Positions 20,579 to 21,583 of a stretch of DNA of 64,000 nucleotides are shown one piece after another. The notes beneath the pieces were generated by a model. That model saw only the letters and a program-made list of their open reading frames with translations. It made no database searches and was not told the origin of the DNA. The translations under genes and the position numbers were made by a program. The stretch is from positions 117,262 through 181,261 of the forward strand of contig JAZKXR010000007.1 of the NCBI GenBank assembly GCA_045611705.1, given 5' to 3'. The DNA is from Alphaproteobacteria bacterium (lineage in GTDB: Bacteria > Pseudomonadota > Alphaproteobacteria > CAAHEQ01 > UBA3637). How positions within the stretch are numbered: position 1 is the first letter of the stretch; every line of letters begins with the position of its first letter.

Positions 20579-21583
20579 ATGTCTTTTTGTGGTAAAAAAA
20601 GAGCTTTGAGTAAAGATGAAAAGAAGCATTATCAAGATGCTTTGGATGGTGAATTTACCATTGGTGAACAATTGGGGCTTTCCGGTGCGAACAGTTCGGC
20701 ATATTTATTGACGGATAAAAATGGCAAAAATTTTGTTCTTAAAATTCCAAACGATTTAAAAAAATTGGACAGATGGCAAGATCGGCAGGCAAAAGCCTGT
20801 GATTTACAGGGTGAATATTTTGGTGATTATCATGGGCCCATTGGAACACCGCAAAGGATAAAGCAAGGGGATGATTTTATTGTTGAAGAGTTGGTAGCGG
20901 GAAAAGAATTTGTTTCTTCTGTTTATGAAACTCTGTCTCCAATTCAAAAAAAGAAAGTTGCTCAGGATTTGGGTGAATTTTTGAGTTATACCCACCAAAG
21001 GACAATGACGGGGAAAACAGTTAAATTACATCCTGGTCAACAAGAATTTGTAACATTGAAACAAACGTATGATTATTTTGAACCTGCTTTAACAGATGAT
21101 GAAAAAAAAGAATTGAAAAAAGAAATTCAAAATTATAACCGTCAGAAAGAAGCACCAGAGGTTTTAGCATATCGTGATTATCGTCCATCAAATATATTAT
21201 GGGATGATAAGAAAAAAAAGCTTTCAATAATTGATTTTGATGTTACTGGAAATGCCTCTGTTTATGAGGATTTTACTCCATCTGCAGCATTAAGCACAAA
21301 AATTTCTTTTCAATTTTGGGCCGACGTGATAAATGCATATAACCAAGCCCCTAAACAAAATCCATTGACCATTGATTTGGAAACTGTTCATCGTAATTTT
21401 TTTATTGGTATATATCATGAAATGGCGCGTTGTAATATTGGAAGAACGCCACCTGAAGAATGTGTAGACAACGTAAGGTATTATTTAAAAAGATTGGATG
21501 CCTTAAAGCCAACTGGTTCACCCATTGAAAGTAAACAAAAGTCTAATTTAATTTCAACCATTAAAAAAGGAAAAACAAAATGA
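20579..21583 (+). CDS. Protein-kinase-like phosphotransferase of the APH/ChoK/eukaryotic-like kinase fold
   Basis: 334 aa with a beta3 Lys in FVLKIP, a catalytic-loop YRDYRPSNILWD (D-x4-N) and IIDFD as the DFG equivalent. It lies 4 nt after the ruvB stop. Confidence 0.65.
   Translation: MSFCGKKRALSKDEKKHYQDALDGEFTIGEQLGLSGANSSAYLLTDKNGKNFVLKIPNDLKKLDRWQDRQAKACDLQGEYFGDYHGPIGTPQRIKQGDDFIVEELVAGKEFVSSVYETLSPIQKKKVAQDLGEFLSYTHQRTMTGKTVKLHPGQQEFVTLKQTYDYFEPALTDDEKKELKKEIQNYNRQKEAPEVLAYRDYRPSNILWDDKKKKLSIIDFDVTGNASVYEDFTPSAALSTKISFQFWADVINAYNQAPKQNPLTIDLETVHRNFFIGIYHEMARCNIGRTPPEECVDNVRYYLKRLDALKPTGSPIESKQKSNLISTIKKGKTK

Follow-up and report, generated by a model that had tools for sequence, protein, structure and literature searches.

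Sequence databases hold very many uncharacterized kinases of the APH family. Among the characterized ones, aminoglycoside kinases of the APH(2'') type and macrolide kinases are the nearest relatives of the protein described here, which is encoded between ruvB and ybgC in a 64,000-nucleotide (nt) stretch of an alphaproteobacterial genome (lineage CAAHEQ01; UBA3637; assembly GCA_045611705.1, contig JAZKXR010000007.1, positions 117,262 to 181,261 of the forward strand; hereafter, the window). In APH(2'')-IVa, salt bridges formed by Glu235 and Glu238, together with Glu239 and Glu268, drive the mainly electrostatic binding of aminoglycosides (PMC4769084). The protein encoded in the window is probably an active O-phosphotransferase of the APH(2'') type that acts on a small molecule other than a classical aminoglycoside, and whose gene was inserted at an operon junction and is expressed by coupling to its neighbors. 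All coordinates below are positions in the window, and residue numbers of the kinase are those of the window protein.

The Pfam APH profile (PF01636) matches residues 35-258 of this protein (profile positions 7-229 of 239) with 48.0 bits against a gathering threshold of 23.2 (E = 1.7e-12), and is matched by 37 of 40 family members. In contrast, Pkinase (PF00069) stays below its cut-off (18.3 bits against 31.7) and covers only the 31-residue catalytic loop (196-226). Choline_kinase (PF01633), the second most common Pfam match among the 40 family members, is below the cut-off for the window protein as well (20.2 against 29); some distant relatives pass it. Of the NCBIfam models, NF033692 fits the window protein best, with 20.6 bits (cut-off 475), the other APH(2'') models score 12.9-19 against 600-625, and the 40 relatives do not fit any NCBIfam model either. 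A phmmer search of the PDB yields a weak match to APH(2'')-Ia (6e-4), and the profile of the 40-sequence family recovers four APH(2'') enzymes, IIa, Ib, IVa and Ia, with E-values from 2e-17 to 9e-16 and alignments of ∼220-240 residues; with eukaryotic-type kinases, the same profile aligns over the ∼30-residue catalytic loop only, at 1e-5 or weaker.

The predicted structure agrees. The AlphaFold2 model, computed from nine orthologs (mean predicted local distance difference test score (pLDDT) 77.6, predicted template modeling score (pTM) 0.77; termini and residues 152-155 disordered), shows the two lobes of a kinase and a helical subdomain of the APH type. All 50 best matches in a Foldseek search of the PDB are APH(2'') or macrolide 2'-phosphotransferases (Mph). 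The fold-comparison scores place, after APH(2''), Mph-E (13.3), corramycin kinase (13.2), aminopropanol kinase (12.9), then APH(9), TvaE and amicoumacin kinase (12.6 each), followed by YihE (11.1) and CcrZ (9.6); eukaryotic-type kinases such as PknB and YabT reach 8.7 at most, and neither HipA nor LegK appears in the top 60 of this comparison. A eukaryotic-type C-lobe with an activation segment (DFG...APE) was not found, and the stretch following the DFD triplet is of the same length as in APH(2''). Taken together, the Pfam and structure tests therefore favor APH over a eukaryotic-type kinase. The first-pass annotation of the window had proposed a phosphotransferase of the protein-kinase-like fold and named both these types, along with small-molecule kinases, as candidates; the fold is borne out and is of the APH type, and among the candidates a small-molecule kinase fits best, whereas a classical aminoglycoside kinase is unlikely for the reasons given below. 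An anti-phage defense role was considered and rejected because PADLOC gave only sub-threshold local matches, confined to the catalytic loop.

The FVLKIP, catalytic-loop D-x4-N and IIDFD motifs noted at first pass are all present, and their key residues, K55, D200, N205 and D219, are invariant along with ∼70 further positions in an alignment of nine orthologs (A1, 48-91% identity). The counterpart of K55 is the Lys in FIFKFPK of APH(2'')-IVa and in VVKVPK of APH(2'')-IIa, the catalytic loop aligns with HNDFSxxN/H of APH(2''), and the third position of the DFG equivalent is D, G or E in the family. In the wider alignment of 14 relatives (A4, 29-60% identity), the invariant residues are G33, G36, W66, Y84, G86, P91, G108, L119, H139, D200, R202, N205, I218, D219, F232, Y254, N255 and E281; the family signature reads (H/Y/F)-x-D-h-R-x-x-N ... 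(I/V)-I-D-F-(E/D/G). Within the proposed active site, K55 would position the nucleotide phosphates, N205 and D219 would bind Mg2+, and D200 would be the base that deprotonates the substrate hydroxyl. R202, located at D+2, recalls the Lys of the HRDxKxxN protein kinases and may take the γ-phosphate-contacting role of that residue. The helical insert (residues ∼143-190) and the C-terminal helices would form a closed small-molecule pocket.

The features that bind aminoglycosides in the APH(2'') enzymes are not retained. In the profile alignment to 3sg8_A, the three glutamates of APH(2'')-IVa that this comparison covered, Glu235, Glu238 and Glu239 (LM-E235-DD-E238-E239-YG), correspond to A237, T240 and K241 in the protein encoded here; the aligned region includes neither Glu268 nor Trp271. 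In the part that aligns with APH(2'')-Ia, acidic and basic residues number 22 and 21 in the window protein, compared with 33 and 12, respectively, in APH(2'')-Ia, and the isoelectric point (pI) of the window protein is 8.6, with 8.4-9.5 in the orthologs from the ruv-tol locus. With neither the aminoglycoside-binding residues nor the acidic character retained, the protein is unlikely to be a classical aminoglycoside kinase, and a polycationic aminoglycoside is an unlikely substrate. That the gene nevertheless encodes a true aminoglycoside 2''-O-phosphotransferase, or an antibiotic kinase closely analogous to one, and confers intrinsic resistance could be argued from the closest solved structures and NCBIfam models, all of which are APH(2''), and from the fold-space neighbors, which are mostly antibiotic kinases. 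We consider this very unlikely, given that the identity to APH(2'') is only 15-19%, the NCBIfam scores are ∼20 bits against cut-offs of 475-625, the equivalents of the three glutamates are Ala, Thr and Lys, and the protein is basic rather than acidic and has no copies on mobile elements. The latter result comes from tblastn searches of 72,556 plasmids and 50,697 phages, which gave 0 matches in either set, and on these grounds a mobile resistance gene was rejected.

More plausible as a substrate is a natural product or metabolite that is neutral or anionic. Because the fold neighbors are mostly natural-product and antibiotic kinases, the gene evolves fast and the habitat is the rumen or gut, a xenobiotic or natural product may reasonably be proposed; a kinase of a metabolite is no less plausible.

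The kinase gene is tightly embedded in what appears to be a single transcription unit that starts with ruvA and ends with tolA (Table 1), with dnaB located upstream of ruvA on the minus strand. All junctions in this unit are overlaps or gaps of at most 9 nt, and terminator-like sites in the region do not exceed the shuffled expectation, which together suggests that the genes are co-transcribed. The ruvB stop codon TAA (20573-20575) is followed by three bases (ACG) and the kinase ATG at 20579, that is, the start lies 4 nt after the ruvB stop, as reported at first pass; the equally reported overlap with ybgC is the ATGA at 21580-21583 (4 nt), where the kinase TGA (21581-21583) overlaps the ybgC ATG (21580-21582). 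The direct coupling to ruvB that was claimed along with these junctions holds for the window, where the 3-nt gap is tight, but not for the orthologs in general, among which the ruvB–kinase spacing is 3, 12, 42 or 104 nt, a 4-nt overlap, or is taken up by an S8-like gene. The lineage-specific kinase gene would be expressed via read-through and translational coupling within ruvAB–ybgC–tolQRA.

Table 1. Features of the kinase gene and its operon in the 64,000-nt window
Feature	Position	Strand	Remarks
Presumed single transcription unit: ruvA, orf191, ruvB, kinase, ybgC, S8-like, tolQ, tolR, tolA	18330..25249	+	from open reading frame (ORF) coordinates
orf191	18947-19522	+	191 aa, signal-peptide-like N-terminus, between ruvA and ruvB
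ruvB, upstream neighbor	19532..20575	+	Pfam RuvB_N, AAA_lid_4, RuvB_C
Shine-Dalgarno-like AAAGGA for kinase	20566..20571	+	in the last ruvB codons, 7 nt before the ATG
Kinase gene, APH(2'')-like phosphotransferase	20579..21583	+	334 aa, ATG start
β3 Lys K55 in FVLKIP (residues 52-57)	20741..20743 (K55 codon)	+	putative nucleotide-phosphate binding; invariant in A1
Catalytic loop YRDYRPSNILWD (residues 198-209)	21170..21205	+	D200 putative base; R202 at D+2; N205 putative Mg ligand
IIDFD, DFG equivalent (residues 217-221)	21227..21241	+	D219 putative Mg-binding Asp; aligns with IIDFG of APH(2'')
Shine-Dalgarno-like AAAGGA for ybgC	21566..21571	+	within the 3' end of the kinase gene (translated as ...KKGK...), 8 nt upstream of the ybgC ATG
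ybgC-type acyl-CoA thioesterase, downstream neighbor	21580..21987	+	Pfam 4HBT_2, 4HBT
S8-like (subtilase-like, divergent) ORF	21991-23244	+	417 aa, between ybgC and tolQ, without a signal peptide

The disordered, Lys-rich tail of the kinase (residues 314-334) encodes the ribosome-binding site of ybgC. Among the non-ribosomal ORFs of the window, such a tail is found in no other protein besides the kinase (...KQKSNLISTIKKGKTK) and the S8-like protein (...KQKNILKLTKGKQNAK). The possibility that these '...KKGK...' tails are a common secretion or targeting signal was rejected because each of them is the in-frame translation of an AAAGGA ribosome-binding site located 8-9 nt before the next overlapping gene. 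A comparison with LegK-like effectors shows a C-terminal tail that is accounted for by the embedded ybgC site, no eukaryotic-type protein kinase domain in Pfam, and a housekeeping operon with vertical synteny.

This synteny extends across rumen and gut Alphaproteobacteria, with orthologs in metagenome-assembled genomes (MAGs) that include UBA3768 (mentioned in a rumen MAG paper), one from the goat abomasum and one from the Hadza gut. The same gene order is found in the ortholog loci L001-L006, where the kinases are 58-60% identical to the window protein, with the S8-like gene missing in L004-L006. The closest relatives (L019 and L020, 91%) have ruvB–kinase–ybgC, continued by tolQR in L019, and both lack the S8-like gene. 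More divergent arrangements are kinase–ybgC–103 aa–tolQRA in L008 (52%), ruvA–88 aa–ruvB–kinase–ybgC–tolQRAB in L012 (49%) and ruvA–ruvB–S8-like–kinase–ybgC–tolQRAB in L009 (43-45%). In L012, a deletion or frameshift divides the kinase (4124-5103 of that locus) into two ORFs, of 263 and 52 aa, and this copy is either a pseudogene or an assembly error. In all intact orthologs (L001, L004, L008, L009, L019), the overlap between the kinase gene and ybgC is kept. Nothing was found in support of a kinase function tied to RuvB, and a literature search linking ruvB, ybgC, tolQ and a phosphotransferase gave no match.

Two further observations concern the ends of the operon. The mechanically called ruvA ORF starts with TTG at 18234 and thereby gains 32 hydrophobic residues (18234-18329), an artifact because the orthologs start at the ATG at 18330 (MIGKLTG...). 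At the other end (24353-27381), tolA is followed not by tolB and pal but by a convergent gene encoding 711 aa, whose counterpart in L001 and L004 encodes a hybrid histidine kinase. In L009 and L012, which are more distantly related, tolB comes directly after tolA.

The kinase is the fastest-evolving gene of the operon. In the comparison with the 91%-identical relative, the ratio of nonsynonymous to synonymous substitution rates (dN/dS) is 0.33 for the kinase versus 0.014 for ybgC, 0.023 for tolQ and 0.014 for tolR, and 12 of the 29 kinase substitutions fall in residues 61-85. The identities to L001, L004 and L009 are 59, 59 and 45% for the kinase, compared with 92, 94 and 89% for RuvB, 84, 81 and 67% for YbgC, and 88, 85 and 73% for TolQ. 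The other lineage-specific inserts of the operon are fast as well (65% for orf191; 68% and 44% for the S8-like protein). The G+C content (GC) drops to 0.32-0.34 inside the kinase gene, compared with 0.43-0.45 in ruvB. These rates, identities and the GC drop therefore point to purifying but relaxed selection and to an accessory gene rather than a core partner of the Ruv or Tol proteins.

The subfamily to which the kinase belongs is coherent but sparse. A word-indexed search of 5.8 billion proteins returned only 11 homologs (49-91% identity), and an exhaustive hidden Markov model search of 1.84 billion representatives yielded 218 at E≤1e-3 and 45 at E≤1e-30; given 218 representative clusters among 1.84 billion, the subfamily can be called small. 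Relatives below ∼40% identity reside in unrelated contexts, namely with an ABC exporter, with tsaE/tsaB and a Mur ligase, with xseA/tsaD, and with glycosyltransferases, and a constant partner gene was not found among the loci of distant relatives that were examined. Two distant members adjoin a gene of the histidine phosphatase superfamily, in L021 at 7007-7600 (+), where it matches His_Phos_1, and in L011 at 422-964 (-), where it was judged only from an RHG-type motif. This arrangement might mean that a kinase and a phosphatase share one substrate, but two cases do not allow a conclusion.

Several points count against an active small-molecule kinase, the reading that we favor. In the HxD motif, the ruv-tol orthologs have Tyr or Phe instead of His, whereas the wider relatives have His. 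A conserved acidic partner for K55 in helix αC was not identified in A1 or A4, where this helix has the conserved W66 and Q70, and the alignment to the αC Glu of APH(2'') is ambiguous by ∼1 residue; because this partner was not found, full catalytic competence is something we infer. The structural model was built from only nine sequences. The genomic context points to no particular substrate, and the conserved kinase/ybgC overlap could mean that the kinase is functionally linked to YbgC. Because the invariant Arg at D+2 is reminiscent of the protein-kinase loop, a peptide or protein substrate is possible, and one distant relative, P0060, passes the Pfam Pkinase cut-off (46.4 bits) over the N-lobe and catalytic loop.

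The last two points bear on the possibility that the gene encodes an APH-scaffold kinase of proteins or peptides, like SrkA/YihE of Escherichia coli, the CotS-type spore-coat kinases or LxmK and TvaE, the kinases of ribosomally synthesized and post-translationally modified peptides (RiPPs). Its Ser/Thr target might come from the same operon (Ruv, Tol or the S8-like protein). The N-lobe and catalytic loop of the subfamily are, by sequence, unusually protein kinase-like: the basic residue at D+2 of the loop (Y/F/H-R-D-h-R-x-x-N) is invariant and recalls HRDxKxxN, Pfam Pkinase gives local matches in 8 of the 40 members, P0060 also matches PK_Tyr_Ser-Thr across the N-lobe and catalytic loop, three members carry the JGI label 'serine/threonine protein kinase', and the divergent S8-like gene co-occurs in some genomes. 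However, there is no activation segment or APE motif and the length after DFD is that of APH(2''), the C-terminal half of P0060 itself is APH-like, and the JGI name is an automatic label. Furthermore, genes for a lyase, a cyclase or a precursor peptide were not found nearby, and three relatives, among them the closest one, lack the S8-like gene. We regard a protein or peptide kinase as unlikely on balance.

A second alternative links the kinase to YbgC and Tol: it would phosphorylate a lipid, an acyl-CoA or an envelope precursor, with translational coupling matching its expression to that of ybgC. Examples would be a kinase of choline- or ethanolamine-type head groups, one that acts on hydroxyacyl-CoA as the ACAD10/11 APH domain does, or an AmgK/NahK-type sugar kinase. 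The overlap with ybgC in every intact ortholog, while the ruvB junction varies, fits this scheme, and so do the basic character of the protein, which would suit an anionic (CoA or phosphate) substrate, the weak profile matches to ACAD-type APH domains (3dxp 8e-7, ACAD11 8e-5), the frequency of Choline_kinase matches in the family and the one distant relative that adjoins a Mur ligase and Ddl. All such similarities are, however, far weaker than that to APH(2''), and Choline_kinase is below threshold in the window protein itself. The dN/dS is ∼15-fold above that of ybgC, tolQ and tolR, which is unexpected for a stoichiometric partner, one lineage (L012) has a broken copy, and overlapping junctions are the rule across this compact operon. 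Most Alphaproteobacteria are not known to have a kinase gene within ruvB–ybgC–tol, which also speaks against such a link. All in all, a YbgC- or Tol-linked function appears quite unlikely.

The fast evolution of the gene could, finally, mean that it encodes a decaying or non-catalytic pseudoenzyme that is kept only for the ribosome-binding site of ybgC in its 3' end. The elevated dN/dS (0.33), the low GC, the disrupted copy in L012, the replacement of the motif His and the failure to find a clear αC Glu are all compatible with decay. Nevertheless, dN/dS is well below 1, a full-length ORF persists in at least eight lineages, down to 43% identity, and K55, D200, N205, D219 and the ∼70 other invariant positions of the nine-sequence alignment are preserved, which makes a pseudoenzyme highly improbable.

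Apart from the kinase, the operon carries other accessory inserts. The S8-like protein has a D118/H149/S323 triad that is invariant in three orthologs; its Pfam S8 match is only 3e-7, and it has no sequence match in the PDB. The gene is absent from L019, the closest relative, and from L004 and L012, is located between ruvB and the kinase gene in L009, and looks like a second fast-evolving accessory insert of the same operon. A 7-nt direct repeat, CAAAATG CAAAATG, spans its stop codon and the tolQ start codon (23230-23243) and may be the footprint of an insertion or of a start-codon duplication. The third insert, orf191, belongs to no Pfam or NCBIfam family, is 65% identical in L001 and L004 and absent from L009, and has an 88-aa ORF in its place in L012. 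The combination of a kinase with an S8 protease brought to mind a RiPP cluster of the lanthipeptide type, which was rejected because no lyase, cyclase or precursor genes are found nearby and the S8 gene is variably present.

The ruvAB–ybgC–tolQRA region thus represents a landing site for fast-evolving accessory genes (the kinase, S8-like and orf191) in rumen and gut Alphaproteobacteria. Because of the Arg at D+2 and the loss of the acidic aminoglycoside-binding residues, annotation pipelines should not list members of this subfamily under aminoglycoside resistance or under Ser/Thr protein kinases. If the substrate is a natural product of the gut or rumen, the kinase would represent a new antibiotic-kinase specificity.

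Comparison with the known systems places the kinase closest to APH(2''), with partial resemblance to others. With the Hanks-type Ser/Thr kinases (PF00069), it has in common the glycine-rich loop, VxK, and (Y/H)RDxRxxN followed by DF(D/G), in line with the local Pfam match at 196-226. Like CcrZ (YtmP), the cell-cycle kinase of Firmicutes (PDB 7s3l), it is an APH-fold kinase encoded among housekeeping rather than resistance genes, in this case those for replication and recombination (dnaB, ruvAB) and division (tol). An alphaproteobacterial analog of CcrZ would be a regulatory kinase of a protein or signaling metabolite instead of a detoxifying enzyme, encoded between dnaB/ruvAB and the Tol division genes and combining an APH(2'') scaffold with an RD-x-R loop; we give this version very little credence. 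With Mph, corramycin kinase, AmiN, APH(9) and Vph, the kinase shares no family at the sequence level (MphL, 5.6e-4, in one member only). The substrates of those enzymes are cationic or neutral antibiotics made by neighboring organisms, and no link of this kind emerged for the kinase of the window.

With APH(2'')-Ia, IIa, IIIa and IVa (PDB 4ork, 3ham, 3tdv and 3sg8), the predicted structure shares the protein-kinase-like/APH fold along the entire chain, that is, the N-terminal helix, the five-stranded N-lobe, the core, the helical subdomain and the C-terminal helices, and its Lys, catalytic Asp and DFG-type Asp occupy corresponding positions. The differences from these enzymes are the low identity, the Ala/Thr/Lys in place of the three glutamates, the basic instead of acidic character, the Arg at D+2 where APH(2'') has Ser, the Tyr or Phe for the motif His, the chromosomal location in a housekeeping operon and scores far below the NCBIfam cut-offs. 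The kinase is, then, not a new kind of system but an uncharacterized member of a small, coherent, APH(2'')-related subfamily within a well-known superfamily.

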